Shown one piece after another: positions 5,628 through 60,586 of a stretch of 64,000 bases of DNA (position 1 is the stretch's first letter; each line of letters opens with the position of its first letter). Under the pieces are notes generated by a model. It was not told the origin of the DNA. It saw nothing but the letters and a program-made list of their open reading frames with translations, and ran no database searches. Made by a program: the position numbers and the translations under genes. The stretch comes from Geosiphon pyriformis uo1 (Eukaryota; Fungi; Glomeromycota), in contig JAAOMT010000134.1 of assembly GCA_016748015.1 (NCBI GenBank), forward strand, positions 1,246,757-1,310,756, in the 5' to 3' direction.

Positions 5628-7759
5628 GAAAGTTTATGATGTATTCCCATTTTTCTACAAAGTTCTTCAATCTGTGTACTGAGAAAAGCTCTTCCTCTAT
5701 TAGATAAAAGTTTTTTGGGACAGCCATGATGGTAGATGATATCTTTATAAATGAAATTAGCTATTGAGACTGCCATTTGATCTGGAATGGCTCTTGCTTT
5801 TACCCATTTTGTAAGATAGTTAATAGCTGTGATAATATATCTGTTGCCATTAGGAGTTATTATTAAAGATTCAACAACATCTATACTAATTCTGTCAAAT
5901 GGTTGACCAACAGAGATTGGATGAATATTTTCTTTGTGATTGGATTTGCCTCTTTTTTGGCAAATGTTACAGGTTTTGATGTATTCAGCAATGTTTTTTC
6001 CCAAGGTAGGCCAATAATAGTGAGCTAAAGTTTTCTGAATTGTCTTTGTTTTTTCAAAGTGTCCAGCTAATGGGTTAGTGTACATGTTGTATATTACAAT
6101 TTCTCTTTCTTCAAATCTGATGACTCTTTGGGAGTGGTCAGGATCTTTTTTATTTCTTTTATATAGCTGGTTCTGGTGAATCAAATAGAAATTTGATTGT
6201 TTGTGCAAATGTTCTCTTTGCTGTTAAGTGTATTCCAGTGGGTATTGTTCTTTACCCAAAAATTCTATTAAGGCAAAGTAGTTGTCCAAGTCTATTATTG
6301 TGTTTGTTTGTGAAAAAGTTACTAATAATTAAGTTGGTTTGGTTTGAGGAGTTGTACTATCACTGGATGGTAAGTTTAAAAAAAGTGTCAGCATTTTGAT
6401 AATTTGCTTCTTTGCAGTGTTGAATATCATAGTCAAATTCATTCAAGTAGAGTATTCAGTAAGTTATTTATTTGTGTTCCAGCTTCTTTTTATTGTGCAG
6501 CCAAACCAAGGCTTAATGATCTGTTACCACTAAGAATTTTGTACCAAGAAGATATTGATCCCAATAGCTAGTAGTCCAAACTACTATTAAATATTCTTAT
6601 TCAATAACTGAATAGTTTTTTTCTGCTTGTGTAAGGGATCTACTGGCATATGCTATCGCATGTTCTCTGCTATTTTCATCTTTCTGTGAAAGAACAGCAC
6701 CAAGTCCATAGCCAGATGCATCAGTGTGGAGGATAAAAGATTGATCCAGATCAGATTGCTTGAGAATTGGTTCAGTAACAAGTTTTTCCTTTAGAATTTC
6801 AAAAGCTTTTTGTTAATGAGTGTCCCAGTAATAATTGACATTTTTTCTGAGTAGCCAATTGAAAGAAAAGGCAATTTTAGAGAAATTCTTAATAAATTTG
6901 CAATAGTAAGAGGCCAAACCAAGGAAAGAGTGTAGTTTAGAAACAATTTTAGCTGGGTCAGGAAAGATTCCATCTTTTGTAATAAGATGACCAAGGAACT
7001 AGGTGGATTGGTGTCTAAAGAAAAATTTGATTGGATTGATCTTAAGGCCAGCATTTCTGAGCAGGTCAAAAACTTTCTGTAAATGTTCAAGGTATTCATC
7101 CCAGGTTTTTGAATATACCATTATATTATCCAAGTAAACCAGAACAAAGTTTTCTTTTACTGATTCAAACACTTTATCTATTAGGCATTGAAAGGTAGAA
7201 GGAGCATTGGTGAAACCAGAAGGCATGACTGTAAATTCATAGATGCCATACTTGGTGATAAAGGCAGTTTTTTTCTGCTTTCTGGATTCATTTCTACTTG
7301 TCAGAATTCAGCAGTTAAGTCAATGGTTGAGAAAAAAACAGCACCATTGAATTTATCTAGCATTGCATCAATTTTGAGGAGTGGGTACATGTCTCTTATA
7401 GTGATGGCATTTAATTGGCAGTAGTTAACACAGAAGTGTAGGGTTTCACCTTTCTTAGATACTACTACAACTGAGAAAGCCCATTCACTCTTGGTTTCTT
7501 GTATGAATCCAAGATCTTTCATCCTATTTATCTCTTTTTTAATAAATTCATCATTGTGTCGATTGGATTGATAAGGTTTCAAATAGATAAGACAAAGTTC
7601 TTTTGTGATAATGGTGTGTTGTATCACATAAGTTCGTCCAGAGGTATCACTTTTTTTTGAAATAACTGGGCCATTTCTAGCCAACAGATTTTCAATGTCC
7701 ACTTTTTTTTCTTCAGAGGAAGATTTTCTTTGTTCTATAATTAGGAATTGGATTTCAGG

Positions 7760-15226: not shown

Positions 15227-15951
15227 TGTTATGGTTGAAACCCATACTTTTTATTAGTTATTACATGTATTAGCCACTGATGTCATATAATTAGCCACCC
15301 TATTTTTAGATAGTGATCGTTGACCTGATTAATGATCTGACTGTTGACCTGATCATTGACCTGATCAATAACCTGATCGTTGACCTGATCATTGACCTGA
15401 TCATTGACTTGATCATTGATTTGGTTGTTGACCACTTTAGATAACTATATAAGCAATAATTCCCTTAGCTGTAGAAAGACATGATCAAAGTAACAAAATA
15501 AAACAATATCAATTACTTCCTCTCATATCACTTATTTCCTTTTTCTTACCTTCAAGTATCTACTTGTTGGCATTTATATACTTTATCTTTTCCCCTTCTT
15601 GATTTGTATTTGTTAAATTAGCCTGAGAAGCAATTGGCTTGCTCTTGTAATTCATTGAATAAAGAAATGATTGAAAAGCACAATAATACCTGTTATTGAT
15701 TCTAAGAATTGCTGAGTTGAGGCATAGAATAATAGCAGCAGTGTTATCTTGTTGACAATTACAGACTATTCCTCTACCTTTAGATTTAAGAAAAGATTAG
15801 TGACTGTGATTTTTATGAGACTGATCATGCACATTGAATTCTTACTTATTCAATTTGCTCTCTTATTGTAATTTCTTCTTTGTTTATTTCCATCACCATA
15901 CAATACTGTTCTTTTTTGCTATCCGTTAGCTTGTTACTCTAATCTGTAACA
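15227..15951 (+). repeat. 5' LTR of copy B
   Basis: TGTTATGG...GTAACA followed by a degenerate PBS. Nine 12-bp units at 15321-15428. Confidence 0.95.
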
Positions 15952-16003
15952 TAAAAGTAGTGCTTCCTGTGAGGTTGTCAAAATTCACTTATTCCCTTAT
16001 TGT

Positions 16004-19641: not shown

Positions 19642-19660
19642 AGATGTGTATAAGAGACAG
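19642..19660 (+). other. Tn5 mosaic end / Nextera adapter (assembly artefact)
   Basis: Exact AGATGTGTATAAGAGACAG at an otherwise unexplained junction between RT and the middle of an LTR. Confidence 0.95.
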
Positions 19661-19942
19661 GCATAGAATAATAGCAGTGGTGTTATCTTGTTGACAATTA
19701 TGGACTATTTCTCTACCTTCAGATTTAAGAAAAGATTAGTGACTGTGATTTTTATGAGACTAATCACGCACATTGAATTCCTACTTATTCAATTTGCTCC
19801 CTTATTGTAATTTTTTCTTTGTTTATTTCCATCACCATATAATACTGTTCTTTCTTGCTATCCATTAGCTTGTTACTCCAACTCGTAACATAAAAGTGGT
19901 GCTCCCTGTGAGGTTGTTAAAATTCACTTATTCCCTCATTGT

Positions 19943-21496
19943 ATGGGTGATTACTCATATCTGCCACAGCAATCAGAAGAACACTTTGCAGCACACAACA
20001 GAAATGACCAAAGTTTCATTGAACTTAATCCTCTGCCCTCCTGCTTGATCTGCTTCTCCCTTGAAGAACAATCTAGTAGACAATTCCAAGACTTTTGGAA
20101 CTGGTTCCTGAACGAGCATTCAGCTGAAACCTACACAGCTTATACAACTTATTACTTTGACCAAGCTTATTTTGAAAACGACTTTGAAGAAAGAAACAAC
20201 AGTATCAATCAGCTCTTATATTCTGCAACCTTTGAATAACAGCCACCTGATTTCGAATATCTGAATCATCAAATCCACATTTGGATTGCTGCCCATCAAG
20301 CAACTGAAACTCCCTTTGAAACAGAAGAAGAAAGCTACCAAACTGCCCCTGTTTTTGATCTTTTATCAAGCGAATCAGACTCGTCTACACAAACAGTTAC
20401 TCCTGAACCAATGGCTAATGACTCCATGCAAGCAAACATTCTGGCCGCCCTCCAAGGTATACAAACTGCTCTAGGGCAAAGAAACAACACCCCAATACCA
20501 TTATTTAGAGGTGATGCACAAGATCCAATTGAATGGTTGGATGACTTTGAAAGAGCTGCTACAGCCAATCAATATGACGATGAGTACAAGTTCCAAATTG
20601 TTGGTGGCTACCTTCAAGAATCCCCTGCTACCTGGTTCTCACAAGAAACAGATGCCAATGCCCAGCAAAGAATCATTAGATGGACACCAGCAAATGTGGG
20701 AGAAATCAACACTTCTTTTACTACCCGGTTTGAAAACAAGTTCAGAACCCCAATATTAATATCAAAATGGCGTATGGAATTGGAAAGAAGAACCCAAGGT
20801 CCTGGTGAAATTGTAACCAAATACGCCAAAGCAATCAGAAAGTTAATCAAACGAGTAGACACTAGAAGAAATTGGACAGAAGAGCAGAAAATTCACTCCT
20901 TCACAAAAAGATTGAGAACTGATCTATTGTATGCTCTTTGGCCCCTCCTGGCCCTGAAAGATAATCCCACCATGGATATGGCCATTGAATTAGCACAAAG
21001 AATTAAAGATAACCAAAGGATGCACTTGGGATCCACACTACCAGTTTTTGCTCCTGTTCCTGTCATGGCTTCTGCCCCTCAAATGGCTGCTACTTCTTTT
21101 GCCACTCACACTCAAGATCCAAATGAACAGTTAATAGACAGACTCACAGCAAATCTTGTCTGGTTATTAGAATCCTTAGCCCAAGCAGTCAGAGAAAATC
21201 AGCAACCACAAAGACCCAGATTTGAACCACACTTCAATCAGCCCCAGCAACTACCTTATTAAAGACAACAAAATCGTGGCCCACCTGTATGCTATTGCTG
21301 TGGATTAACTGGACACTTTTCAAGAGATTGCAACAATCCTCCTCTGCCTCCACCAGTCCCCAGAAACAATGATGCTCAGAACACCAGGATCAACAACAAC
21401 AATGTGCCCAACCAAAAATTCAATCATGCCAACATCAATTTCTTTGGAGAGGATCCCCTAGTTGAAGCCACTGTTTATCAGCCTTTAAACTGGTAG
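19943..21496 (+). pseudogene. gag: gag of copy C with N-terminal extension
   Basis: MGDYSY... is in frame with MANDS...DPIEWLDDFERA and the CCHC knuckle. Two premature TAA stops (from CAA). Confidence 0.92.
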
Positions 21497-21526
21497 GCGC
21501 ATCTCCAAAGAGTGAGAGTGCAAGCC
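21484..21526 (+). promoter_or_regulatory. -1 ribosomal frameshift signal (T TTA AAC plus downstream stem-loop)
   Basis: X XXY YYZ heptamer in the gag frame, just before TGG TAG. The -1 frame is open into MDELAINP. Confidence 0.85.
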
Positions 21527-24186
21527 AACCAGAAGAAAACCCCTTTTACACTTTTAACTTAACTGATGATAACCATGACATGGATGAATTAGCAATCAAC
21601 CCCTTTGAATCCACAAGAAAGAAGAAGAAAGCCAAAGTTGATTTCGTTCTAGACCCCAATAAAGCTTTTACATCAACTGCTGACAACAATGAGCCCCCAA
21701 AAGCCAAAGTTTTCAAGAACCCTCCAAAGTTGGAACCCCCAGAAATAGTACAAAAATCTGGTCCCTATTCTGTTGTCAAAGACCTTATGGAAACCCCAGC
21801 ACATATAACCTTTGGCCAATTGATGACCCATCCACAATTCAGAAAAGATCTTTGCAAATCCCTGATTCCAAAGAAAAAGACACCCAAAACCAACAAACGC
21901 CCTCACCAAGCTGGACTTGCTGACAATAGTAATGTCACTCCTCTAATTTGTAAAGCCCAAGTGGCTGGCTACTTCATCGATTTGATCCTAGACAGTGAAT
22001 CATTTGTTAGTGTTATTGCCAAACACTTTCTTGAAGCAATTGGCAGAAAAATTGATGAATCATCCACACGACCAATGACCAATGTGCATGGTGATAAGAA
22101 AAAAGGGCTTGGCATAGCCAAAGCTATTCCTGTCCACATCAATGGCATCAGCATTGAAACTGATATGGAAGTGTCTGAAGCAAAAGAATACACCATCATT
22201 GTTGGCAATGAATGGCTCAAGAAAGCAAAGACTTTGCTTGATTATGAACTCTGTGAACTAACCATCAGATGTGGTGAGAAACCCATTGTGGTTAAGTGTC
22301 ACCATTGGACAACTCCCCCAATACCCAAGCAGAGCCCAGAAGAAAATGAATCAGATGAATCAGATGATGAAGAAAGTAAGGAAGAAGAAGAACAAGAAGA
22401 ACAAGAAGAACAAAAAGAAACTGCTGAACTTGCCTATACCATCTTCACTAGCAATGGCAAACCAATGGATAATGTCAAGGCAGATAAAGAAGGAATCATT
22501 GTCAGTGGCAAGCTGATCTGCTGGCCTTATTATGACATGCTCAGAAGAACCTTTGACAGAAAGCCAGGCAAGAAAGCCAAATACAGTTATTGGTGGCATG
22601 GTCCTTGTGCCTGGTGCTGGTGTGACAAACCATTGTATTCTCCTAGTGATGAATGCATGTCCTGCCTGATCTATTACAAAGATTGGAAACCAATCAGCTT
22701 GATACCCTGAGAGGAAATAAAAGAAGTCCAAAAGTCCTTTGAAAACGAACCACCTGAAATCCAATCACTGGTTGTAGAACAAAGAGAACCCTCTCCAGAA
22801 GAAAGAAAAGTAGACATTGAAAATCTGCTGGCTAGAAACAGCCCAGTTATCTCAAAAGAAGGTGAACCTCCTGAACGTACACATGTGATATAACACACTA
22901 TTATCACCAGAGAAACTCACCCCATCCATTTGAAGCCCTATCAATCCAACTGGTGCAATGATGAGTTTATCAAAAAGGAAATAACCCGAATGAAAACCCT
23001 TGGATTCATACAGGAAACCAAGAGTGAATGGGCATTCCCAGTTGTAGTGGTATCCAAGAAAGGGGGAACCCTACACTTTTGTGTTAACTATCACCAATTA
23101 AATGTTATTACTGAAAGAGACATGTACCCACTTCCCAAGATTAATGCAATGCTAAACCAATTCCATGGTGCCGCTTTCTTCTCAACCATTAACTTAACTG
23201 CTGGATTCTGGCAAGTAGAGATAGATCCAGAAAGCAGAAAGAAAACTGCCTTCATCACCAAGTATGGTACCTATGAATTCACAGTCATGCCTTTTGGTCT
23301 TACAAATGCTCCTCCCACCTTTCAACGCTTAATGGACAAAGTATTTGAATCAGTAAAAGAAAACTTTGTTCTAGTCTACTTAGACGACATAATGGTATAC
23401 TCAAAAACCTGAGATGAACACCTTGAACATTTGCAAAAGGTTTTTGACCTCCTTAGAAATGCTGGTCTCAAGATCAATCCAATTAAATCATTCTTTAGAT
23501 GTCAATCCACCCAGTTCCTTGGCCATCTTATTACAAAAGATGGAATCTTTCCTGATCCAGCCAAAATTGAAAAAGTTCAAAACATTAGACAACCAATGAA
23601 TGTTCATGAACTACACTCTTTTCTTGGTTTGGCCTCTTATTATCGCAAGTTTGTCAAGAATTTCTCCAAAATCACTGCTTCTCTCAATCAGCTACTTAGG
23701 AAAAACATCAATTATTACTGGGACACTTATCAACAAAAAGCATTTGAAATTCTGAAGGAAAAACTGGTTACAGAACCCATCCTCATGCAACCTAATTTGG
23801 ATCGACCTTTTATCCTCCACACTGATGCATCTGGCTATGGACTTGGTGCTGTTCTTTCCCAAAAAGATGAAGATAACAGAGAACACGCTGTAGCATATGC
23901 CAGTAGAACTCTCACACCAGCAGAAAAGAACTACTCAGTCACTGAGCAAGAATGCTTAGCAGTAGTTTGGGCTACCAGCTACTGGGACAAATATCTTAAG
24001 GGTGTGAAATTTTTGGTGGTAACAGATCACCAAGCTTTGGTTTGGCTACACAACAAAAGAAACCTGGAACATAAACAGATAACTCACTGGATACTCTACT
24101 TGGATGAATTTGACTATGACATTCAACACCGCAAAGGAGCTAATCATCAAAACACCAACACTCTCTCTAGACTTACCATCCAGTGA
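21490..24186 (+). pseudogene. pol: pol PR-RT-RNase H of copy C
   Basis: ILDSE (mutated DSG), YLDD, and RNase H motifs TDAS, ECLAV, VTDH. Ends SRLTIQ*. Confidence 0.93.
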
Positions 24187-24251
24187 TAGTAAAATCCTCT
24201 CAAACCAAACCAACTTAATTATTTGTAACTCCCCCACAAACAAACACGATA

Positions 24252-25509
24252 ATGGGCTTGAACAACTACTCTGCTTTAATAGAATTTTTGGGTAAAAGAC
24301 AATACCTGCCAGACTATACTTGACAGCAAAGAGAACATTTGTGCAAACAATCAAATTTCTATTTGATTTGCCAGAACCAGTTATATAAAAGAAATAGAAA
24401 AGATCCTGACTGCCCCCAGAGAGTCATTAGATTTGATGAAAGAGAAATTGTGATCTACAATATGCACACTGATCCATTAGCTGGACACTTTGGAAAAACA
24501 AAAACAATTCAAAAAACTTTAGCTTGCTATTATTGGCTGGCCTACCTTGGGAAAAGACATTGCTGAATACATCAAAACCTGTAATACCTGCCAAAGAAGA
24601 GGAAAACCCAATCGCAAGGAAGATATCCATCCAATTTCTGTTGGTCAACCATTTGATAGAATTGGTATAGATGTTGTTGGACCTTTAACAGTAACTCCTA
24701 ATGACAACAGATACATTATCACAGCTACTGACTATCTTACAAAGTGGGTAGAAGCAAGAGCCACCCCAGATCAAATAGCAGTCTCAATTGCCAATTTCAT
24801 TTATGAAGATATTATCTGTTACCACGGCTGCCCCAAAGAATTTTTATCTGATAGAGGAAGAGCTTTTCTCAGTACACTGGTTGAAAAACTTTGCAGAAAA
24901 ATGGGAATATGTCATAAACTCTCTTCTCCTTATCACCCCCAAACAAATGGCCTAGTGAAACGTTTCAATAAAACACTATGTGAAATCCTAGCCAAAACCA
25001 GTAAAGAAACCAACCTATGGGACAAAGTATTGCCTTCAGCTTTGTTTGCTTACAGAACTGTGAATCATAACATAACAAGTTATGAACCCTTTTATCTGCT
25101 CTATGGACAAATGGCAACTCTACCAATAGAAACAGATATAGAAACAATACCTTTTAAAGAAATAACAATAGGAGATTACAAAGACATTTTGCAAAGAAGA
25201 CTTGGTACTATTCTTGACTTATTGGTAGAAGCACGGATAATTGCCTTTAAAAAGATAAAACAGTTCCAAGAGAAGCTCAAAAAGAAAAAGACCTATAAAA
25301 CACTTTTCTTAAGTGTTGGTGACTTAGTTTTGGAATACCATTCAGACAGAGACAATGTCTATGGTAATAAATTCTTTAGCCAGTGGAAAGGACCCTTTAT
25401 AGTCAACAAAGTTTTGAACAATGGTTCTTATATCTTACAAGATCAATATGGAACAATATTCAGTGATCGCCCTGCTCATGGCACGCGACTCAAGAAATAT
25501 CACAAATGA
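24252..25509 (+). pseudogene. Integrase ORF of copy C (separate from RT-RNase H)
   Basis: HHCC zinc domain, GIDVVG / SDRG / YHPQTNG DDE core and GPF motif (WKGPF). No chromodomain. Frameshift near 24540. Confidence 0.92.
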
Positions 25510-26267
25510 CCTGATTGGTTACCTGTTGTGGTAATACCAACCCAAATGATCAGCAAAAATCAGATATAAATAAATGCACCATTCCCAAAACAGAGGTATC
25601 TTCAATCGACATGAACAATTATTTCCTGGATCAAAACATTCAAAATGCTTTCTATACTCTCCATGAGTATTGGATCAAGAACTATCCAAATGCTACTCTG
25701 ACTATCAGAAAACAAACCACTATAACAGACAACAGTAGAACTCACACTGTTATTAGACCAAAGAAAACAACTACCAAAAGAGAAAGAATTGGTAGCAAAA
25801 TGGATAAATACCTGCTGAAAAGCATAACAGTAATGATACTTTCACCTTCCAGCACAATTGGAAAAACAATACAAGAAATCTTGCCCATAGACAAAAACTT
25901 GTCATATAGAAGACAACTAGAACTCTATGGTCGTCTTGGTGAAATTATAGAAGACATGAAGCTTATGAAGAAAACAACTTCAGAGATACAAGTGGAAATT
26001 TTGGGCATTATACGATTAGATGTCCCAAGAGTTTTGACCATTGCTAGAAAAGCCAGAACTCTAATACAAAGATTTGGTCTCTTGGATACAAAGCTTATTT
26101 CGCCTCAAGTACTATATACTCTATCCACAAAAGACTTCAACAAACTAGTTAGTTTTGAGTTAGACAAAACCCTTCACATAGACTATCCCATAAATAGTTT
26201 GATTTCGCCAGAGCTCAATCTCTTTGAAGAGGATGATGTTATGGTTGAAACACATAGTTTTTATTAA
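25506..26267 (+). CDS. Extra ORF (~250 aa, unknown function) in the env position of copy C
   Basis: Open from 25515 to 26267, homologous in B, H, K and O. Runs through the PPT into the LTR. No obvious signal peptide or TM helix. Confidence 0.75.
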
Positions 26268-28819
26268 TTATCACATGTATTAGCTACTGATGTCATATAA
26301 TTAGCCATTCTATTTTTAGATAGTGATCATTGACTTAATCGTTGACCTGGTTGTTGACCACTTTAGATAGCTATATAAGCGATGATTCTCTTAGCTGTAG
26401 AAAGACATGATCAAAGTAACAAAATAAAACAATATCAATTACTTTCTCTCATAATTGCTTATTTCCCTTTTCTTACCTTTAAGTATCTACTTGTCAGCAT
26501 TCACATACCTTATCTTTTCCCTTTCTTGATTTGTATTTGTTAAAATTAGCCTGAGAAGCAATTGGCTTGCTCTTGTAATTCATTGAATAAAGAAATGATT
26601 GAAAAGTACAACGATACCTGTTATTGATTTTAAGAATTGCTAAGTTGAGGCATAGAATAATAGTAGCAGTGTTATCTTGTTGACAATCATGGACTATTCC
26701 TCTACCTTCAGATTTAAGAAAAGATTAGTGACTGTGATTTTTATAAGACTGATCATGCACATTGAATTCCTACTTATTCAATTCACTCCCTTATTGTAAT
26801 TTCTTCTTTGTTTATTTCTATCACCATACAATACTGTTCTCTCTTGCTATCCATTAGCTTGTTACTCCAACCCGTAACACTAGTACTACCTTTGCTACCT
26901 AATGTATTAAACATATCTAATTCATACATATTACCCATAATGCATACAAGTTCATGACTACTCTTAACAAGACTGCATCTACTTAGCCATCTGATCTGGA
27001 TTGGACTTGATATTAGAGGATTGAACCTCCCATAACTCCATCATTACATCAAATATATCATCATAGATTGAAAAATCTTTAGCATCACCATCATCATCAT
27101 TATCATCATCATTATCATCATCCATGTCTTCATCATCAGATATGTTATATTGTACCTTCCCACTCCTCAACTTGAGGGTCCCTACTTTCTTTTGCAGCAC
27201 AGAAGTCACAGCATGAACAGCCTTAATTTGGTTTCCCAATCCAATCACACTTTCCTTCATTGCCTCAGCCATAACTGGTGGAGTAGACAATAATGTAGTA
27301 ACCAATGCAACCAAAGAACCCATAGGCTCAACTATAGATTTGATCAACAAAGACAGTTTACTAAGTTGGGTTTCCAGAGAAGCCAATCTAGCATTAACAG
27401 CAACATCTGAACCAGAGGAGGCAACTGGCAACAGCGGCCCCACAACTTTGGGGGATGTACTGAAAGCCAGACCTGTATCAGCAACAGCAGCAACAGGAGG
27501 AACCACAGAGGTGACAGCTTTGGCATAGAATTTAGCTCCAACAAGGGATGACTTGAGAAAGATGGGACCACCAGCAGAATTAGAAGAGAGTTTGGGAGGG
27601 AGAGATGACAACACCTTGCAGTCCACAGCCAAATGATCTAAACTTTGACATCTATAGCAGTGACAACATCCAGGAGTTTCCCACCAGATGCGACAGCCAC
27701 GTAAGGTACCAGTTTTTGAAACAGCAGCATTTAAAGATTCCAAGAAATCAAAGGTCACTACAGCAAAGTATTGACATCGATAGGAATCAGGGGAGCAAGG
27801 AATGAAGCATGTATGGCCACCAACTTGGGAGACCAGATCACTTATCTCAAATGCAGTACAGCCAAATGGAAGATTAACCAGCTTAGCTTTGAAAGCATTT
27901 CTTGAGGAGATAACCTCCTTTTGGTTGGCAATAGGAAGAATCCCAACATTATCTTTTCTGACCAACACAGACCAGTTAGAGAGAGCAGCAGCAGCAGAAG
28001 AAATCTCCTTAAAGTTAACCACAGCATATTACCATAAGCCAGCAGGCTTCAACTTAACAGAAGTGACAACACCAAAAATGCCAAGAGCAGATTTGATGTC
28101 ATTAGAAGAGGTACCCAAGGGTACATCACGCAGTGCAACTGACAAAGAAGGGAAAGAAACAGAGGTTACTTCTGAAGACTGTGCAATCTTAAGAGTGGTC
28201 AAAAAAACCTCATCACCAATGGCTACTTTGGTAGCACCATTTAGACACTCCTGAGATGCAAATTCCACACAGAACAACTTGACAGCATCTTGTAAAACAG
28301 ATTTAAGCCCAATACAACCAGGCAGCAACTGAAACAAAGAACTGAGCAAAGCCATCTTGATCTTAAACGTAGTACCAGGTACAAGATTGGAGGCCACCCA
28401 ACCAGAGAACTTTTGATGTCCACTCACATTCACCCAAGCACCAGCATCAGATGCACCAGAAACTGGGGGGGGGGACAGTTGATTCCATTTCCATTTGATC
28501 AGCCCAATCTTTGAGATCATCTGGATTGATGGACTGTTTTGCTACTGGGATTGGCAATGATCTGCCAGAGAGTACCACATCAGGCAACACAGCCAGTGGT
28601 TGATCTTGGCCCATCTTGGAAGATGTGCTGCTGCTGTTGCCATACATATCAGGAATAGGGCTGGCTGCTGCTGCTGTGGAGATCTTACTGAAGATCTCAT
28701 CTGGAACCACAAAGGGGTTTGGTGTGACCATGACAGTTGTGACTGCCTGCTACTGTTTTTTGGAATTTTTGGCTTTCATGGCCATTTGTGAAGCAGTAGT
28801 AGTAGAAGTAATAGTGGGA

Positions 28820-31260: not shown

Positions 31261-31634
31261 AGAAGTAATAGTGGGAGTGGTAAGAGCAGGAAAAACCAAC
31301 TTGTTGACTGGCCTGTTATTAAAAATCTTTGGGCTTTTTGAAGTAGTGGAGATAACACTGGGACTAACCCAAGTGTGTCTTTTTGAAAGAACTTTGACTG
31401 GAGAAGAACTACCAGCCAAAGATGAAGAAAATGAACCAGAAGCCGCTAAAGACAGCTTATTACTATTATTTTTTAAAGGAAATGTTGCCAGAATGTTTTG
31501 TCTAGCTGCTTCAATAACAGAGAGACCCTCTCGTGTTGAAACTTTATTAGTTACTATAAGAAAAGTAACATTTGCAACTTTTTTACTCTTAGCTCTATTC
31601 GTGGTCATAAAATTTAGGAGAGAAAGAGTTTTTT

Positions 31635-34201
31635 GCCTCTTATTATCACAAGTTTGTCAAGGATTTTTCCAAAATCACCGCTCCTCTCAATCAGCTACTT
31701 AGAAAAAACATCAATTATCACTGAGGCACTCATCAACAAAAAGCATTTGAAATTCTGAAGAAAAAACTGGTTACAGAACCCATCCTCATGCAACCTAATT
31801 TGGATCGACCTTTTATTCTCCATACTGATGCATCTGGCTATGGACTTGGTGCTGTTCTTTCCCAGAAAGACGAAGATAGCAGGGAACATGCTGTAGTATA
31901 TGCCAGTAGAACTCTCACACCAGCAGAAAAGAACTACTCAGTCACTGAGCAAGAATGCTTAGCAGTAGTTTGGGCTACCAGCTACTGGGACAAATATCTT
32001 AAGGGTGTGAAGTTTTTGGTGGTAACAGATCACCAAGCTTTGGTTTGGCTACACAACAAAAGAAACCTGGAACATAAACAGATAACTCGCTGAATACTCC
32101 ACTTGGATGAATTCAACTATGATATTCAACATCGCAAAGGAGCTAATCATCAAAACACTGATGCTCTCTCCAGACTTACCATCCAGTGACAGAACAACCC
32201 TCTCAAACCAAACCAACTTAATTATTAGTAATTCCCCTTTTTGACAAACACAATAATGGACTTGGACAATTACTCTGCCTTAATAAAATTTTTGGGTAAA
32301 AGACAATACCCGCCGAACTATATTCGACAGCAAAGAGAACATTTGTGCAAACAATCAAATTTCTATTTGATTTGTCAGAACCAACTTTATAAAAGAAATA
32401 GAAAAGATCCTGATCTACAATATGCACACTGATCCATTAGCTGGACACTTTGAAAAAACAAAAACAATTCAAAAAACTCTAGCTTGCTATTATTGGCCTA
32501 CCTTGGGAAAAGACATTGCTGAATACATCAAAACCTGTGATATCTGCCAAAAGAAGATATTCATCCAATCTCTGTTGGTCAACTCTTTGACAAAATTGGT
32601 ATAGATGTTGTTGGATCTTTAACAATAACTCCTGATGGCAACAGATACATTATTACAGCTACCAATTATCTTACAAAGTGAGTAGAAGCAAGAGCCACTC
32701 CAGACCAAACAGCAGTCACAATAGCCAATTTCATTTATGAAGATATCATTTGTCACCATGGCTGCCCCAAAGAACTTTTATCTGACAGAGGAAGAGCTTT
32801 TCTCAATACACTTGTTGAAGAACTTTGTAGAAAAATGGGAATATGTCATAAACTCTCTTCCCCTTATTACCCCCAAACAAATGGCCTAGTGGAACGTTTC
32901 AATAGAACACTATGTGAAACCCTAGCCAAAACCAGTGAAGAAACCAACCTATGGGACAAAGTATTGCCTTCAGCTTTGTTCACCTACAGAACTGTGAATC
33001 ATGACATAACAAGTTATAAACTCTTTTATCTGTTCTATGGATGAATGGCAACTCTACCAATAGAAACGGATATAGAAACAATACCTTTTGAAGAAATAAC
33101 AATAGGAGATTACAAGGACATTTTGCAAAGAAGACTTGGTACCATTCTTGACTCATTGGTAGAAGCACAGATAATTGCTTTTGAAAAGATAAAACAGTTC
33201 CAAGAGAAGCTCAAAAAGAAAAAGACCTATAAAACACTTTCCTTAAGTGTTGGTGACTTAGTTTTGGAATACTATTTAGACAGAGACAATGTCTATGGTG
33301 ATAAATTCTCCAGCCGCTGGAAAGGACCTTTTATAGTCAACAAAGTTTTGAACAATGGTTCATATATCCTACAAGATCAATATGGAACAATATTCAGTAA
33401 TTGCTCTGTTCATGGCACACAACTCAAGAAATATCACAAATGACCTAATTGGTTACCTGTTGTGGTAATACCAACTCAAATAATCAGCAAAAATCAGATA
33501 TAAATAAATACACTATTCCCAAAACAGAGGTATCTTCAATTGACATGAACAATTATTTCTTGGATCAAAACATTCAAAACACTTTCTATACTCTCCATGA
33601 GTACTGGATCAAGAACTATTCAAATACTACTCTGACTATTGGAAAACAAACCACCATAACAGACAACAGTGAAACTCACACTGTTATCAGACCAAAGAAA
33701 ACAACTACCAGAAGGGAAAAAATTGGTGGCAAAATGGATAAATACCTGCTGGAAAGCATAACAGCAGCGATACTTTCACCTTCTAGCACAATTGGAAAAA
33801 TGATACAAGAAATCTTGCCCATAGACAAAAACTTGTCATATGGAAGACAACTAAAACTTTATGGTTGTCTTGGTGAAATCATAGAAGACATGAAGCTCAT
33901 AAAGAAAACAACTTCAGAGATACAAGTGAAAATTTTGGGCATTATATGATTAGATGTCCCAAGAGTTTTGACCATTGCTAGAAGAGCCAGAACTCTTATA
34001 CAAAGATTTGGTCTCTTGGATACAAAACTTATTTCACCTCAAGTATTATATACCTTATTCACAAAAGACTTCAACAAACTAGTTAGTTTTGAGTTAGACA
34101 AAACCCTTCACATAGACTATCCCATAAATAGCTTGATTTCGCTGGAGCTCAATCTCTTTGGAGAGAATGATGTTATGGTTGAAACCCATACTTTTTATTA
34201 G
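31635..34201 (+). pseudogene. 3' part of copy B: RT end/RNase H (stop 32189), integrase (32256-33443), extra ORF (33440-34201)
   Basis: Collinear with copy C. Confidence 0.9.
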
Positions 34202-41100: not shown

Positions 41101-43034
41101 GAACTTAAAGAAGTACAAAAGTTCTTTGAGAGTGAACCACCTGAAATCCAATCACTAGTTGTAAAACAAAGAGAACCTTCCCCTGAAGAAAGAAAAATAG
41201 ACATTAAAAATCTGTTGGCTAGAAATAGCCCAGTTATCTCAAAAGAAGGTAATACCCCTGGACAAACCCATGTAATACAACACACCATCACCACTAAAGA
41301 AACTTGCCCCATCCATTTGAAGCCTTACCAATCTAATTGGCATAATGATGAGTTTATCAAGAAAAAGATAAACTGGATGAAAGATCTTGGATTTATACAA
41401 GAAACCAAGAGTGAATGGGCTTTCTCAGTTGTAGTGATATCCAAGAAAGATGGAACTCTACACTTCTGTGTTGACTATTGCCAATTAAATGCCATTACTA
41501 TAAGAGACATGTACTCACTCCCCAAAATTAATGCAATGCTTTCTTTTCAACTATTGACTTAACTGCTAGATTCTGGCAAGTAGAGATGGATCCAGAAAGT
41601 AGAAAGAAAACTGTCTTCATCACCAAGTATGGCACCTATGAATTTACTGTCATGCCTTTTGGTCTCACCAATGCTCCTCCCACCTTTTAATGCCTAATGA
41701 ATAAAGTGTTTGAATCAGTAAAAGAAAACTTTGTTCTGATTTACTTAAATGACATAATGGTATATTCAAAAACCTGGGATAAACACCTTGAACATTTACA
41801 GAAGGTTTTTGACCTGTTCAGAAATGCTAATCTTAAGATAAACCCAATCAAATCTTTTTTTGGATGCCAATCCACCCAGTTCCTTGGTCATTTTGTTACA
41901 AAAAATGGAATCTTTCCTGACCCAGCTAAAGTTGAAAAAGTTCAAAACATTAGACAACCAATGAATGTTCCTGAACTACACTTTTTCCTGGGTTTGGCCT
42001 CTTACTATCGCAAATTTATCAAGGATTTCTCCAAAATTGCCTTTCCTCTCAATCAACTACTCAGAAAAAATGTCAATTATTACTGGGGCACTCATCAACC
42101 AAAAGCTTTTGAAATTTTGAAGAAAAAACTTGTTACTAAACCAATTCTCAAACAACCTGATCTGAATCAACATTTTATCCTCCACACTAATGCATCTGAC
42201 TATGGACTTGATGCTGTCCTTTCACAGAAAGATGAAAATAGTAGAGAACATGCTATATCATATACCAGTAGATCCCTCACACCAGCAGAAAAGAACTATT
42301 CAGTTACTGAACAAGAATGTCTAGCAGTAATTTGGGCTACCAACTACTGGGATTAATATCTTCTTGGTACAAAATTCTTAGTGGTAACAGATCATCAAGC
42401 CTTGGTTTGGCTGCACAATAAAAAAAAGCTAGAACACAAACAAATAACTCACTAAATACTCCACTTGGATTAATTTGACTATGATATTCAATACCACAAA
42501 GGAGCAAATCATCAAAACACTGATACTCTATCTAGACTTACTATTCAGTGACAATACAACCTCTCAAACCAAACCAACTTAATTATTAGTAACTTTTTTA
42601 CAAACAAACATGATAATGGACTTGGACAACTACTCTGCTTTAATAGAATTTTTGGGTAAAAGACAATACTCATCTGAATACACTTGACAGCAAAGAGAAC
42701 ATTTGCACAAACAATTAAATTTTTATTTGATCTGCCAGAACCAATTATACAAAAAAAACAGAAAAGATCTTGACCACTTCCAAAGAGTTATCAGATTTGA
42801 AGAAAGAGAAATTGTAATATACAACATGCATACTGACCCATTAGCTGGACACTTTGGAAAAACAAAAGCAATTCAGAAAACTTTAACTTGTTATTATTGG
42901 CCCATCTGCCAAAGAAGAGGCAAACCCAATCACAAAGAAGATATCCATCCAATCTCTGTTGGTCAACCCTTTGACAAAATTGGTATAGATGTTGTTGGAT
43001 CTTTAACAATCACTCCTGATGGCAACAGATATAT

Positions 43035-46000: not shown

Positions 46001-49000
46001 CATTGTTGGCAATGAGTGGCTTAAGAAAGCAAAAGCCTTACTCGATTATGAACTTTGTAAGCTAACCATAAGATGTGGTAAAAAACCCATTGTGGTTAAA
46101 TGTTGCCATTGGACAACTCCTTTAGCAACCAAACAAAATCATGAAGATGAGCAATCAGAGGAATCAGATGATAAAGAGAGTGATGAAAAAGATGAACAAG
46201 AAAAACAAGAAGAAACTGCTGAACTTGCCTACACCACCTTCACCAGCAATGGCAAGCCACTAGACAATGTTAAAGCTGATAGAGAGGGAATCATTGTAAA
46301 TGACAAGCTGATCTGCTGGCTCTACTATGATATTCTAAGAAGAACCTTTGACCAAAAGCCTGGCAAGAAAGCCAAATACAGTTATTGGTGGCATGGCCCT
46401 TGTGCCTGGTACTGGTGCAATAAACCTTTGTATTCTCCAAGTAATGAATGCAAATCATGCCTAATCTATTACAAAGATTGAGAACCAATTAGCCTAATAC
46501 CAAAAGATGAATTAAAAGAAGTACAGAAGTCCTTTGAGAATGAACCACCTGAGATCCAATCATTAGTAGTAAAACAAAGAGAACCCTTCCCAGAAGAAAA
46601 AAAGATAGACATTGAAAATCTGTTGGCAAGAAACAGCCCAGTTATCTCAAAAGAAGGTAATATCCCAGGATGAACCCATGTGATACAACACACCATCACC
46701 ACCAGAGAAACTCACCCCATCTATTTGAAGCCTTACCAATTCAATTGCTAAAATGATGAGTTTATCAAGAAAGAAATAAACCAGATGAAAGAACTTGGAT
46801 TCATACAAGAAACTAAGAGTGAATGGGCTTTCCCAGTTGTAGTGGTATCCAAGAAAGGTGGAACCCTACACTTCTGTGTTGACTACTGCCAATTAAATGC
46901 CATCACTAAAAGAGACATGTATCTACTTCCCAAGATTGATGCAATGCTGAACCAATTCAAAGATGCTGCTTTCTTTTTAACCATTGATCTAACTGCTGGA
47001 TTCTGGCAAGTAAAGATGGATTCAGAAAGCCAGAAAAAAACCGTCTTCATTACCAAGTATGGCACCTATGAATCCACAGTCATGCCTTTTGGTCTCACCA
47101 ATGCTCCTTCCATCTTTCAATGCTTAATGAATAAAGTATTTGAATCAGTGAAAGAAAACCTTGTTCTGGTCTATCTGAATGATATAATAGTGTACTCAAA
47201 AACCTGGAATGAACACCTTAAACATTTGCAAAAGGTTTTTGATCTTCTCAGAAATGCAGATCTCAAGATCAACCCAATCAAATTTTTCTTTGGAAGACAA
47301 TCCACCCAATTCCTTGGCCATTTTATTACAAAAGATGGAATTTTCCCTAATTCAGCCAAAATGGAAAAAGTTCAGAACATAAGACAACCAATGAATATTC
47401 ATAAGTTATGTTCTTTCCTTGGTTTGGTCTTCTATTATCACAAATTTGTTAAGGATTTCTTCAAAATTGCCTCTTCACTTAATCAGCTACTCAGGAAAAA
47501 TGTCAACTACCATTGGGGCACACATCAGCAGAAAGCATTTGAAACTCTCAAAGAAAAATTGGTTACAGAACCTATTCTCAAACAATCTGATCTGGATCAA
47601 TCTTTTATCCTTCACACTAATACATCTGGCTATGGACTTGATGCTGTTCTCTCACAAAAAGATGAAGATGGCAGGAAATATGCAATAGCCTATGCCAGTA
47701 GAATCCTTACACCAGCAGAAAAGAACTATTTAGTTACTGAGCAAAAATGCTTAGCAGTAGTTTGGGCTACCAGCTACTGGAATAAGTATCTCCTTGGTGT
47801 GAAGTTTTTGGTGATAACAGATCACCAAGCTTTGGTTTGGCTGTGCAACAAGAAAAGACTAGAACATAAATGGATAGCCCACTGAATACTCCACTTGAAT
47901 AAATTCAACTATGATATTCAACACTGTAAAGGAGTTAATTATCAAAACGCCGACACTCTCTCCAGACTTACTACCAAGTGACAGTACAACCTCCCAAACC
48001 AAACCAACCTAATTATTAGTAATTCTCTTACAACCAAACACAATAATAGACTTGGACAACTACTCTGTCTTAATGGAATTTTTGGGTAAAGGACAATACC
48101 TACTGGAATACACTCAACAGCAAAGAGAACATTTGCACAAACAATCAAATTTTTATTTGATCTGCCAGAACTAATTATATAAAAGAAATAGAAAAGATCC
48201 TGACCACTCCCAAAGAGTCATAAGATTTGAAGAAAGAGAAATTGTGATCTACAACATGCACACTGATCCATTAGCTGGACACTTTGGAAAAACAAAAACA
48301 ATTCAGAAAACTCTAGCTCACTATTATTGGCCTACCTTGGGAAAAAACATTGCTGAGTACATCAAAACCTGTGATACCTGCCAAAAAAGAAGAAAACCCA
48401 ATTGCAAAGAAGACATCCATCTAATTTCTGTTGGCCAACCCTTTGACAGAATTGGTATAGATGTTGTTGGACCATTAACAGTAACTCTTGATGGCAACAG
48501 ATACATTATCACAGCTATTGACTATCTTACAAAGTGGGTAGAAGCAAGAGCCACCCCAGATCAAACAGCAGTTTCCATTGCTAATTTTATTTATGAAGAT
48601 ATTATTTGTCACTATGGCTGCCCCAAAGAACTTTTATCTGATAGAGGAAGAGCTTTTCTCAATACACTGGTTGAAGAACTTTGTAAAAAAATGGAAATAC
48701 ATCACAAACTTTCCTCCCCTTATTACCCCCAAACAAATGGCCTAGTGGAATGTTTCAATAGAACACTGTGTGAAACCTTAGCCAAAACAATTAAAGAAAC
48801 AAACTTATGGGACAAAATACTGCTTTCAGCTTTGTTTGCTTATAGAACTGTGAATTATAACATAACAATTTATGAACCCTTTTACCTGCTCTATGGATAA
48901 ATGGCAACACTACCAATAGAAACTGATATTGAGACAATACTCTTTGAAGAAATCACAATAGGGAATTACAAAGACATTTTGCAAAGAAGACTTGGTACCA

Positions 49001-50620: not shown

Positions 50621-53600
50621 ATACCATTATCACCAAAAAAACTCACCCAATCTATTTGAAACCTTATCAATCCAATCAACACAATGATGAATTCATCAAG
50701 AAAGAGATAACCTGAATGAAAAATCTTGAATTCATATAAGAAACCAAGAGTAAATAGGCTTTTTTAGTTGTAGTAATATCCAAGAAAGAGAAAACCCTAT
50801 GTTTCTGTGTTAACTACCACCAATTAAATACTATCACTATAAAAGACATGTATCCACACCCCAAAATTGATACAATGTTAGGCAAATTCAATGGTGCTGC
50901 TTTCTTCTCAACTATTGACTTAACTACTGAATTCTGGCAAGTAGAGATGGATCCAGAAAATAGAAAGAAAACTGCAAAGAACATGCTATAGCATATGCCA
51001 GTAGAATCCTTATACCAACAGAAAAGAACTATTCAGTTACTAAACAAAAATGCTTAGCAGTAGTTTGGACTACTAGTTACTGGAACCAATATCTTTTTGG
51101 TGTAAAATTCCTAGTAGTAACTGATTATTAAGCCTTGGTTTGGCTGTATAACAAAAAAAATTTAGAACATAAATAGATAACTCACTAGATACTTCACTTG
51201 GATGAATTTAACTATAATATTTAACACCACAAAGGAGCAAATCATCAAAATGCTAACACTTTCTTTAGACTTGCCATCCAATGATAGTACAACCTTTCAA
51301 CCAAACCAACTTAATTATTAATAATATTCTCATAAACAAACATAATAATGAACAAAACTGGAAAAAACTCTCTCTCTCCTAAATTTTATGACCACAAATA
51401 AAGCTAAGAGTAAAAAAGTTGCAAACGTTACTTTTCCTATAGTAACTAATAAAGTTTCAACATGAGAGGGTCTTTCTGTTATTGAAGCAGCTAGACAAAA
51501 CGTTCTGGCAATATTTCCTTTAAAAAATAATAGTAATAAGCTGCCTTTAGCGGCTTCTGGTTCATTTTCTTCTCCTTTGGCTGGAAGTTTTTTTCCAGTC
51601 AAAGTCCCTTCAAAAAGACACACTCAGGTTAGTTCTAGTGTTGTCTCTACCACTTCAAAGAGCCCAAAAATTTTTAATAACAGACCAGTTAACAAGTTGG
51701 TCTTTCCTGCTTTTACCACTCCCATTACTACTTCTACTACTACTGCTTTACAAATGGCTGCAAAAGCGAAAAATCCCAAAAAACAGCAGCAGGCAGTTGC
51801 AACTGTTATGGTCACACCAAACCCCTTTGTGGTTCCAGATGAGATCTTCAGTAAGATCTTCACAGCAGCAGCCAGCTCTATTCTTGATATGGATGGCAAC
51901 AGCAGCGGCACATCTCCCAAGATGGGCCAAGATCAACCACTGGCTGTGTTGCCTAATGTGGTACTCTCTGGCAGATCATTGCCAATTCCAGTAGCAAAAC
52001 AGTCCATCAATTCAGATGATCTCAAAGATTGGGCTGATCAGATGGAAATGGAATCAACTGTTCCCCCCCCAGTTTCTGGTGTATCTGATGCTGGTGCTTG
52101 GGTAAATGTGAATGGACGTCAAAGGTTTTCTGGTTGGGTGGCCTCCAATTTTGTACCTGGTGCTACATATAAGATTAAGATGGCTTTGCTCAGTTCTTTG
52201 TTTCAGTTGCTGTCTGGTTTTATTGGGCTTAAATCTGTTTTACGAGATGCTGTCAAGTTGTTTTGTGTGGAATTTGTATCTCAGGAGTGTCTAAATGGTA
52301 CTACCAAAGTGGCCATTAGTGATAAGGTTTTTTTGACCATTCTTAAGATTGTACAATCTTCAGGAGTGGCCTCTGTTTTTTTCCCTTCTTTGTCAGTTAC
52401 ACTGTGCAATGTACCCTTGGATGCCTCTTCTGATAACATCAAATCTGCTCTTGGCATTTTTGGTGTTGTCACTTCTGTTAAGTTGAGGCCTGCTGGCTTA
52501 TGACAATATGCTGTGGTTAACTTTAAAGACATTTTTTCTGCTGCTGCTGTTCTCTCTAACTGGTCTGTGTTGGTCAGAAAAGATAGTATTAGAATTCTTC
52601 CCATTGCCAACCAAAAGGAGGTTATCTCCTCAAGAGATGCTTTCAAAGCTAAGCTGGTTAATCTTCCATTTGGCTGCACTGCATTTGAGATAAGTGATTT
52701 GGTCTCCCAAGTTGGTGGCCATACATGTTTCATTCACTGCTTCCCTGATTTCTATCAACGTCAATGCTTTGCAGTGGTAACCTTTGGCTCTTTGGAATCT
52801 TTGGATGCTGCTGTTTCAAAAACTGGTACCTTATATGGCTGCCGCATCTGGTGGGAAACTCTTAGATGTCATCGCTGCTATAGATGTCAAAGTTTAGATC
52901 ATTTGGCTGTGAACTGCAAGGTGTTGCCACCTTTCCCTCCCAAACTCTCTTCTAATTCTGCTGGTGGTCCCATCATTTTCAAGTCATCCCTTGTTGGAGC
53001 TAAATCCTATGCCAAAGCCACCACTTCTGTGGTTCCTCCTGTTGCTGCTGCTGCTGATACAGGTCTGGCTTTCAGTACCTCCAAAATTGTGGTGCTGCTG
53101 TTGCCGATTGCCTCCTCTGGTTCAGATGTTACTGTTAATGCTAGGTTGGCTTCTCTGGAAACCCAACTTAGTGAACTGTCTTTGTTGATCAAATCTATAG
53201 TTGAGCCTGTAGGTTCTTTGGTTGCATTGGTTACTATGTTATTGTCTACTCCACCAGTTATGGCAGAGGCAATGAAGGAAAAGTGTGATTGAATTGAGAA
53301 ACCAAATTAAGACTGTTTGTGTTGTGGCTTCTGTGCTGCAAAAGGAAGTGGGGGCCCTCAAGTTAAGGAGTGGGAAGGTACACTATAACATATTTGATGA
53401 TTAAAACATAGATGATGATGATGATGATGATGATGATGGTGATGCTAAAGATTTTTTGGTCTATGATAATACATTTGATGCAATGATAGAGTTATGAGAT
53501 GTTCAATCCTCTAATATCAAGTCCAATCCAGATCAGACTGCTAAGTGAATGAACAGTCTTATTAAGAGTAGTCATGAACTTGTATGCATTATGAGTAAGA

Positions 53601-58115: not shown

Positions 58116-60521
58116 GCGCACCTCCAAAGGGTGAGAGTGCAAGCCAACCAGAAGAAAACCCTTTTTACACTTTTAACTTAACTGATAATAACCATAACAT
58201 GGATGAATTAGCAATCAACCCCTTTGAATCCACAAGAAAGAAGAAGAAAGCCAAAGTTGATTTTGTTCTAGACCCCAATAAAGCTTTTACATCAACTGTT
58301 GACAACAATGAGCCCCTAAAAGCCAAAGTTTTCAAGAACCCTCCAAAGTTGGAACCCCCAGAAATAGTACAAAAATCTGGTCCCTATTCTGTTGTCAAAG
58401 ACTTTATAGAAACCCCAGCACATATAATCTTTGGCCAATTGATGACCCATCCACAATTCAGAAAAAATCTTTGCAAATCCCTGATTCCAAAAAAAAAGAC
58501 ACCCAAAACTAACAAACGCCCTCACCAAGCTGGACTTGCTGACAATAGTAACGTCACTCCTCTAATTTGTAAAGCCCAAGTGGCTGGCTACTTCATCGAT
58601 TTGATCCTAGACAGTGAATCATTTGTTAGTGTTATTGCCAAACACTTTCTTGAAGCAATTGGCAGAAAAATTGATGAATCATCCACATGACCAATGACCA
58701 ATGTGCATGGTGATAAGAAAAAAGGGCTTGGCATAGCCAAAGCTATTCCTGTCCACATCAATGGCATCAGCATTGAAACTGATATGGAAGTGTCTGAAGC
58801 AAAAGAATACACCATCATTGTTGGCAATGAATGGCTCAAGAAAGCAAAGNNNNNNNNNNNNNNNNNNNNNNNNNNNNNNNNNNNNNNNNNNNNNNNNNNN
58901 NNNNNNNNNNNNNNNNNNNNNNNNNNNNNNNNNNNNNNNNNNNNNNNNNNNNNNNNNNNNNNNNNNNNNNNNNNNTCCTAGTGATGAATGCATGTCCTGC
59001 CTGATCTATTACAAAGATTGGGAACCAATCAGCTTGATACCCTGAGAGGAAATAAAAGAAGTCCAAAAGTCCTTTGAAAACGAACCACCTGAAATCCAAT
59101 CACTGGTTGTAGAACAAAGAGAACCCTCTCCAGAAGAAAGAAAAGTAGACATTGAAAACCTGCTGGCTAGAAACAGCCCAGTTATCTCAAAAGAAGGTGA
59201 ACCTCCTGGACGTACACATGTGATACAACACACCATCATCATCAGAGAAACCCGCTCCATCCATTTAAAGCCCTATCAATCCAACCGGCACAATGATGAG
59301 TTTATCAAAAAGGAAATAACCTGAATGAAAACCCTTGGATTCATACAGGAAACCAAGAGTGAATGGGCATTTCCAGTTGTAGTGGTATCTAAGAAAGAGG
59401 GAACCCTACACTTTTGTGTTGACTATTGCCAATTAAATGCTATTACTGAAAGAGACATGTACCCACTTCCCAAGATTGATGCAATGCTAGACCAATTCCA
59501 TGGTGCTGCTTTCTTCTCAACCATTGACTTAACTGCTGAATTCTGGCAAGTAGAGATGGATTCAGAAAGCAGAAAGAAAACTGCCTTCATCACCAAGTAT
59601 GGTATCTATGAATTCACAGTCATGCTTTTTGGTTTTACAAATGCTCCTCTCACCTTTCAATGCTTAATGGACAAAGTATTTGAATCAGTAAAAGAAAACT
59701 TTGTTCTAGTCTACTTAGACGACATAATAGTATACTCAAAAACCTGGGATGAACACCTTGAACATTTGCAAAAGGTTTTTGACCTCCTTAGAAATGCTGG
59801 TCTCAAGATTAATCCAATTAAATCATTCTTTAGACATCAATCCACCCAGTTCCTTGGCCATCTTATTACAAAAGATGGAATCTTTCCTGATCCAGCCAAA
59901 ATTGAAAAAGTTCAAAACATTAGACAACCAATAAATATTCATGAACTATGCTCTTTTCTTGGTTTGGCCTCTTATTATCACAAGTTTGTCAAGGATTTCT
60001 CTAAAATCACTGCTCCTCTCAATCAGCTACTAAGAAAAAACATCAATTATCACTGGGGCACTCATCAACAAAAAGCATTTGAAATTCTGAAGAAAAAACT
60101 GGTTACAGAACCCATCTTCATGCAACCTAATTTGGATCGACCTTTTATCCTCCATACTGATACATCTGGCTATGGACTTGGTGCTATTCTTTCCCAAAAA
60201 GAGGAAGATAACAGAGAACATGCTATAGTATATGCCAGTAAAACTCTCACACCAGCAGAAAAGAACTACTCAGTCACTGAGCAAGAATGCTTAGCAGTAG
60301 TTTGGGCTACCAACTACTGGGACAAATATCTTAAGGGTGTGAAATTTTTGGTGGTAACAGATCACCAAGCTTTGGTTTGGCTACACAACAAAAGAAACCT
60401 GGAACATAAACAGATAACTCGCTGGATACTCCACTTGGATGAATTCAACTATGACATTCAACACCGCAAAAGAGCTAACCATCAAAACGCTGATGCTCTC
60501 TTCAGACTTACCATCCAGTGA
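58109..60521 (+). pseudogene. pol: pol PR-RT-RNase H of copy K
   Basis: 398-aa RT/RNase H ORF at 59325-60521 with YLDD; protease at 58199-58850. Confidence 0.93.
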
Positions 60522-60586
60522 TAGTAAAACCCTCTCAAACCAAACCAACTTAATTATTTGTAACTCCCCCACAAACAAACACGATA

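Follow-up and report, generated by a model that had tools for sequence, protein, structure and literature searches.

In textbook long terminal repeat (LTR) retroelements, integrase remains part of the Gag-Pol polyprotein, and this takes care of both its dosage and its packaging. A 64,000-nucleotide stretch of the Geosiphon pyriformis uo1 genome (contig JAAOMT010000134.1, positions 1,246,757 to 1,310,756, hereafter the window, with positions counted from its first letter) raises the question of whether this holds for all of them. In a family of Ty3/Gypsy-type LTR retrotransposons found there, RNase H ends at a stop codon and integrase begins behind a short spacer as an open reading frame (ORF) of its own. 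We found that the RNase H stop is real, ancestral and clade-wide. The sequences further suggest that integrase is probably made by ribosomes restarting after this stop.

Two families make up the window, as a nested cluster: one of LTR retrotransposons, with copies about 81-96% alike, and another that is poly(A)-tailed. An earlier note on this DNA had claimed a TGA after RNase H in all seven LTR-element copies covering the site, and the TGA was indeed found directly after the RNase H end motif in 7/7 copies, positions included. In copy C, the stop (TGA, 24184..24186, + strand, then in-frame TAG TAA) is followed by a 65-nt spacer that is A/C-rich, AUG-free and unstructured (24187..24251, +) and by a stand-alone integrase gene (24252..25569, +), which has a YPYY-like N-terminus, H2C2, a DDE core and GPF and is decayed by stops and one frameshift. 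The junctions of copy B (32187..32258, +; stop 32187-32189), copy K (60519..60589, +; stop 60519-60521) and the copies at 42549..42618 (+; stop 42549-42551), 47979..48048 (+; stop 47979-47981), 51282..51350 (+; stop 51282-51284) and 6293..6362 (- strand; stop 6362-6360) have spacers of 66, 65, 64, 64, 63 and 64 nt, respectively. The integrase ATG is intact in five of the seven copies and has decayed to ATA in two (48046 and 6295). In the copy at 51348, a poly(A)-tailed insertion with a target duplication breaks integrase at the ATG, and integrase picks up again at about 53796. The integrase start MDLDNYSAL described in the earlier note is correct in general; the copy at 24252 reads MGLNNYSAL, and the two ATA copies and the interrupted copy depart from it.

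The seven spacers, 63-66 nt long with 1-3 G each, are nearly G-free and carry frame-changing indels, as had been noticed before. Each contains a stop in the integrase frame, including the TAA at 60551 already pointed out, and ignoring the TGA still yields no fused frame in any copy. When six copies were aligned, spacer transversions amounted to 0.037 per site as compared to 0.014 and 0.008 in the flanking coding DNA, and gap columns were confined to the spacer with none in the flanking coding DNA, as expected of non-coding DNA. The window spacer is unstructured (folding z +0.5 to +1.0). In DNA run X1, which is possibly the window's own sample and thus reports other copies of the family and not an independent organism, a 27-nt mid-spacer block (60532-60558) has no variant at 8% while both flanks vary; this is possibly a cis-element or a contig-depth effect.

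The split extends to relatives. In an integrase set of 120 proteins, the best of 1026 with lengths of 180-574 aa, the first zinc-finger His lies at residue 61-81 in 79/120 proteins, and 76 of these 79 start with MD, ME or MN. Met1 is invariant in 62 aligned integrases, which were chosen as full length. The named close matches come from glomeromycetes, namely Geosiphon pyriformis (78% over 47% of the query), Rhizophagus irregularis and R. clarus, and the split-integrase Gypsy group likely belongs to mycorrhizal fungi. Viral contigs gave just three distant integrase matches. We also examined metagenome loci found with core-domain patterns, and all locus counts below rest on the best 80 of 357. 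Twenty-nine of them are cut by contig ends or lack a detectable RNase H end, and 51 show both the RNase H end and the integrase start. None of the 51 junctions is fused, and the integrase ATG is at the homologous place in 50. Among these 50, the junction measures -11 to +2 nt in 13 loci, 24-125 nt in 31 and more in 6. The short junctions take the forms AUGA, UAAUG, AUGnnUGA and stop-NN-AUG, and inside the six longest lies either a short ORF or an RNase H extension that has decayed. Clustered at 80% identity, the 50 loci make up 40 families; each of the three frame offsets occurs among them, and the stop is TAA, TAG and TGA in 27, 8 and 5 families, respectively. In three relatives (L050, L051 and L040) gag to RNase H forms an open frame, of 1621, 1439 and 1228 aa, respectively, and integrase is split nonetheless. 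The earlier claim that integrase is a separate cistron made apart from Gag-Pol thus agrees with 51/51 unfused junctions and an invariant Met1. Its author had proposed to look for the stop and spacer in relatives and had named a continuous RNase H-integrase frame in the youngest copies as an outcome that would refute it; the search in relatives returned unfused junctions in all 51 loci that show both ends, intact elements included, and no such continuous frame was seen, intact relatives being split.

Several relatives showed further features. RNase H carries an acidic extension of 210-340 aa with a conserved Cys/His-rich domain at its end in L050 (4348-5163), L054, L062, L064 and L075; the extension is broken in L033, L042, L056 and L077, and two members tested had no Pfam match. 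An intact Gag-Pol ORF in L051 (710-5029) holds a NUDIX domain between protease and reverse transcriptase (RT), and in L066 and L070 the RNase H stop is separated from the integrase start by a short lysine-rich ORF.

When longer forms were sought, RT and integrase were joined at comparable score in only two proteins (P0121 and P0122). Both are eukaryotic gene models from which the start of integrase and the conserved end of RNase H have been removed. One true fusion with a short linker, P0124 (258 bits), lies inside or beside the split clade and may be either the ancestral state or a re-fusion. In a concatenated RT and integrase tree of 23 split and 22 fused rows, the fused rows being picked from the matches of the longer-form search, the split rows and P0124 formed one clade (SH-aLRT 98). 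Constraining the split rows alone to one group was not rejected (p-AU 0.28), and overlap and spacer junctions were intermixed. The integrase-only tree was concordant (support 96); the RT-only tree placed the split group on one branch with a support of just 34. The comparison of RT and integrase phylogenies that had been suggested therefore gave agreement between the combined and integrase trees and an RT tree of low resolution, while RT and integrase identities correlated (rho 0.45) with no sign of a foreign integrase.

Behind integrase lies a fourth ORF, and its homologues across the clade bear out the four-ORF Gypsy layout that had been proposed. In copy C, ORF4 encodes 218 aa (25611..26267, +) and ends inside the 3' LTR; a profile built without it matches it at E 1.6e-6. 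A profile from 28 loci outside the window matches ORF4 at the expected place in four window copies (best E 2.9e-7) as well as in further loci. The family has 662 representatives at E <= 0.001, with named members from Rhizophagus, Gigaspora and Glomus. Its proteins are 130-240 aa long, and the L032 copy was modelled as a compact helical domain (pLDDT 92); by this model, ORF4 is a conserved, unnamed, predicted all-helical family across the clade. No Pfam match was found in 29 members and no PDB sequence match below E 0.6. The model had no Foldseek match at E <= 0.001 in the PDB or viral models and a best VIA-align Z of 5.0, which is not proof of a new fold, and Atlas matches were unnamed or below threshold. 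In errantivirus-like elements that carry env, the ORF behind integrase codes for an envelope protein with surface and transmembrane parts; set beside it, ORF4 is a protein of 130-240 aa that is predicted to be compact and helical and has neither a Pfam nor a fold match. A TATA box, TATAAAT (25565..25571, +), lies 46 nt upstream of copy C ORF4 and overlaps the integrase stop; TATA is at -46 in three window copies (25565, 33545 and 62254). In 19 of 27 families a TATA precedes ORF4, mostly at -34 to -58, as compared to 5.1 +/- 1.8 expected (0/300 shuffles), and AUGs are frequent in the spacers upstream of ORF4. ORF4 is thus predicted to be expressed from its own short TATA-driven transcript.

How could a separate integrase be made? 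We consider it probable that ribosomes restart after the RNase H stop. Gag-Pol would be made by -1 frameshifting at U UUA AAC, a heptamer at the gag/pol overlap common to L004, L017, L044 and the window family, or as a single ORF in some relatives. Ribosomes would end Gag-Pol at the RNase H stop, and some terminating 40S subunits would remain on the genomic RNA and reinitiate, either at once at overlap junctions or after scanning 24-125 unstructured nt (63-66 nt in the window family). Integrase would thus arise without protease cleavage, at a level below that of RT and near fresh Gag-Pol and RNA. To get to the DNA that it inserts, free integrase would have to take an unusual route: like foamy-virus Pol, it might enter the particle by binding RNA or Gag-Pol, or else it might encounter the cDNA in the nucleus.

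Two features of the junctions point to use of the integrase AUG. In 28 short spacers (1789 nt) AUG does not occur, as compared to 16.5 +/- 3.2 in dinucleotide shuffles (0/1000 shuffles as low), and a purine is at -3 of the integrase AUG in 34/40 families vs. a background of about 47%. AUG-free spacers and a purine at -3 suggest that ribosomes do use this AUG, arriving at it by scanning or by direct restart. Reinitiation is the best reading because the TATA that precedes ORF4 is not positioned before integrase (see below) and because the AUGA and UAAUG overlaps are like those of known stop-restart systems. Of the mechanisms listed in the earlier note, reinitiation is therefore favoured and a spliced RNA is disfavoured clade-wide. 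The third, an A/C-rich leader acting like an internal ribosome entry site (IRES), is unsupported because spacers lack conservation of both sequence and length and are missing altogether from many relatives.

Several points weigh against reinitiation. We found no clade-wide constraint on synonymous sites upstream of the stop among 27 families and no tether of the TURBS kind (a ribosome-binding site upstream of termination), in a test that is blind to family-specific elements. Kozak context is reported to be unnecessary for TURBS reinitiation in the available part of PMC10275272; the strong Kozak context here equally fits scanning from a capped short RNA. In known cases stop and start nearly touch. 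Overlap or near-contact is found in 13/50 related loci, and the window family has them 63-66 nt apart instead; with a gap of 65 nt behind an ORF that is long and dependent on a frameshift, little integrase would be expected. The overlaps themselves can come from compaction alone. The shortage of AUG is not confined to the spacers, as it extends to the final 60 nt of coding sequence ahead of the stop (9-10 AUG in each 30-nt bin, against 20-28 farther upstream), and the control triplet CAT occurs in the spacers at about half of expectation (15 vs. 28.7). Finally, the majority allele of the window family (78% of X1 depth at 60559) has a TTAG 26 nt before the AUG, which is a possible splice acceptor.

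Among the alternatives to reinitiation, a subgenomic mRNA for integrase from a TATA-less promoter in the RNase H end or the spacer fares best, and we still regard it as unlikely. It would account for the strong Kozak context and AUG-free leaders, and ORF4 shows that the elements use internal promoters. In addition, the 30 nt leading up to the AUG hold more T[AG]AC than expected (18/30 vs. 8.7 +/- 2.4), although this pattern was picked after looking; it is branch-point-like and mostly has no AG after it. However, TATA before integrase is not positioned, being scattered in 8/40 families (4.0 +/- 2.0 expected; 15/300 shuffles), and is absent within 200 nt of integrase in the four window copies tested. 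A conserved signal in the coding region was not found. At overlap junctions the previous AUG is 8-69 nt upstream, which would put the start site inside RNase H codons in several sublineages.

Distinctly less plausible is IRES-like entry through structured RNA before the integrase AUG, independent of upstream termination. A 39-nt motif with two helices (GUGnAAGCnwAAG, a 6-bp stem with a CAnnGUGA loop and a 4-bp outer closing stem) is present a few nt before the integrase AUG in 17/80 loci (e.g. L018:17-58 and L050:5190-5231) and nowhere else in those loci. Pairing holds in 98% of its cells, with two-sided changes at 7/10 pairs; none of 500 shuffles had as high a covariation score, which is not a probability since the structure was read from the same related sequences. 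The motif has no Rfam match and no pattern match in viral contigs. A different, pseudoknot-like motif with a compensated second stem is found in the RNase H-integrase spacer of two loci (L040:3783-3830 and L065:325-372). On the other side, the hairpin motif is absent from the window family, whose spacer is unstructured, and from most loci, 13 junctions have no spacer at all, and a role in tethering for reinitiation, or in packaging, would suit the motif just as well.

We are more doubtful still of a spliced subgenomic RNA in which the 5' leader is joined, env-style, to an acceptor near the integrase AUG. The possible acceptor of the window family, TTATTAG 26 nt before the AUG with CTTAAT just upstream, is found in 4/7 window copies and 78% of depth, but its AG is missing in copies C and K (about 22% of depth). 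In the relatives, AG is absent from 10/28 spacers, shows no positional peak and is below expectation (39 vs. 53.1, hairpin families left out), and in 5/40 families the stretch from the previous AUG to the start lacks [CTA]AG.

It is highly improbable that one polyprotein is restored by Ogre-like splicing of the spacer, by readthrough or by frameshifting. The models P0121 and P0122 join RT to integrase, P0124 is truly fused, and Ogre has an intron between protease and RT (PMC6317226, available part). However, the two gene models leave out the integrase start and the conserved end of RNase H, and all three frame offsets and all three stops occur together with an invariant Met1. Frame-restoring GT-AG pairs are found in 5/36 relatives and in 0/7 window copies, so the restoring intron that the earlier note had named as an outcome against its own proposal is absent from the window. 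Least credible of all is that the stop is an artefact of decay, with CGA turned to TGA by methyl-cytosine deamination in dead copies: the copies are CpG-depleted and have other decay stops in common, but the T at 60519 has no variant at 8% across 657 contigs of run X1, the sole change within the RNase H stop codon there is TGA to TAA (17%), a nearby true decay stop at 61103 reads C in 95% of X1 depth (mostly CGA), and intact relatives are split too, mostly with TAA.

The remaining parts of the elements are those of an LTR retrotransposon. Pfam identified gag, protease, RT, RNase H and integrase domains in the window in Gypsy order. Copy C (all features on the + strand) retains the 3' part of its 5' LTR (19659..19890), a primer binding site 6 nt past the LTR (TGGTGCTCCCTGTGAGG, 19897..19913), which we take to be elongator tRNA-Met-like, a decayed gag with a Retrotrans_gag domain and a CCHC knuckle (19943..21496, its start inferred by offset from the copy at 56562), a putative -1 frameshift site, U UUA AAC, with a predicted stem-loop behind it (21484..21540), a decayed pol with protease, RT and RNase H but without integrase (21466..24183), and a polypurine tract and 3' LTR (26223..26879, LTR 26237-26879). 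Copy K (55774-63352, +) has the target duplication ATAA and LTRs 93.8% alike, and the nested copy B (15227-34788, +) has the target duplication GTAT. LTR pairs are only 93.5-93.8% alike over the stretches compared and the copies are strongly CpG-depleted (o/e 0.16-0.20), which indicates that all window copies are old. Copy K contains assembly gaps at 58850-58975, 61616-61635 and 62950-62969, and a 292-bp integrase stretch duplicated across the second gap is probably an assembly artefact. tRNA genes were sought in the window and none was found; Rfam gave no window match at gathering scores and none in 14 related loci at E <= 1.

The second family (51352-53795, 28830-31261, 26877-28819 on the - strand, 35842-38130, 7815-10902 and 12251-14359) is about 2.4 kb long, with one long ORF with weak RRM and CCHC matches, a poly(A) tail, target duplications of 13-16 bp and no RT match. 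It looks like an ORF1-only, non-autonomous LINE derivative, presumably of the kind called "HAL1-like". The two families are inserted into each other, one second-family copy exactly at an integrase ATG.

A large clade without polyprotein integrase makes the textbook rule optional. It opens the questions of how eukaryotic ribosomes restart after a long ORF on a cellular-type RNA, by what means free integrase locates the cDNA and how retrotransposons could give rise to stand-alone integrase transposases. Mis-annotation in the genomes of mycorrhizal fungi is accounted for as well, in the form of invented RT-integrase introns and orphan "hypothetical" ORF4 proteins. Tentatively, an intact fungal LTR clade might be polycistronic throughout, with an integrase-free Gag-Pol, a stop-restart integrase that one branch steers by an RNA motif (maybe also a packaging handle) and a TATA-driven helical ORF4 that escorts integrase or boosts reinitiation. 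If so, integrase would here be released from the polyprotein for the first time in any known group of LTR retroelements. The literature searched describes no Gypsy lineage with a separate integrase ORF, with Repbase Reports, most subscription papers and supplements outside its coverage, and a prior mention is possible. The available parts of PMC5911963, PMC4427930, PMC9963178, PMC11042837, PMC3248453, PMC11952901 and bioRxiv 2021.03.30.436303, supplements being outside coverage, mention no split integrase.

The closest known system is Ty3/Gypsy. Like yeast Ty3, the window family has two LTRs (TGTTA..TAACA), a primer binding site after the 5' LTR, a polypurine tract before the 3' LTR, 4-bp target duplications, a gag with capsid and nucleocapsid (CCHC), and the order protease-RT-RNase H-integrase. 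Its integrase is of Gypsy type (H2C2, DDE, GPY/F), with Ty3 as the closest solved structure (7q5b, E 3e-53), and its RT is nested among Gypsy polyproteins, where the outgroups were unnamed or database-named fused matches and not curated clade references. The ICTV profile of the Metaviridae places integrase inside pol and allows gag, pol and env (PMC7879559). The window family does not have this canonical layout: integrase is a cistron of its own, and the fourth ORF is small, helical and without a Pfam match. It is thus a variant lineage of Ty3/Gypsy (Metaviridae) and not a canonical member.

Stop-restart precedents with the same AUGA/UAAUG overlaps after a long ORF are the caliciviruses (TURBS), the hypovirus CHV1, the victorivirus HvV190S and the non-LTR element SART1, with efficiencies of 3-20% according to the part of PMC10275272 available. 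The likeness is one of sequence; for the structured element that tethers the 40S subunit upstream of the stop in TURBS-type systems, no clade-wide conserved counterpart was detected here, and most families, including that of the window, have spacers of 24-125 nt. Foamy-virus Pol is made apart from Gag and packaged through contacts with RNA and Gag, but there the whole of Pol is separate and comes from a spliced RNA, whereas here integrase alone is separate (PMC3705302, in the text available). Ogre elements of the Tat lineage also have a stop-containing spacer in the polyprotein region; theirs lies between protease and RT and is spliced to one frame, for which the window copies allow no such intron (PMC6317226, as far as its accessible text goes). 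Finally, Ginger1 DNA transposons and YPYY-bearing Gypsy integrases share with our integrase a stand-alone unit of about 400 aa, a YPYY-like motif, H2C2, DDE and GPY/F, as the accessible portion of PMC2836005 describes them. Ginger1 was compared by description, the trees holding no Ginger1 sequences; it has terminal inverted repeats and no RT, whereas here integrase lies between RNase H and ORF4 within LTRs, in an element that has RT and lacks terminal inverted repeats. If the polycistronic organization is true, this clade would be a natural stepping stone towards Ginger1-type DNA transposons.

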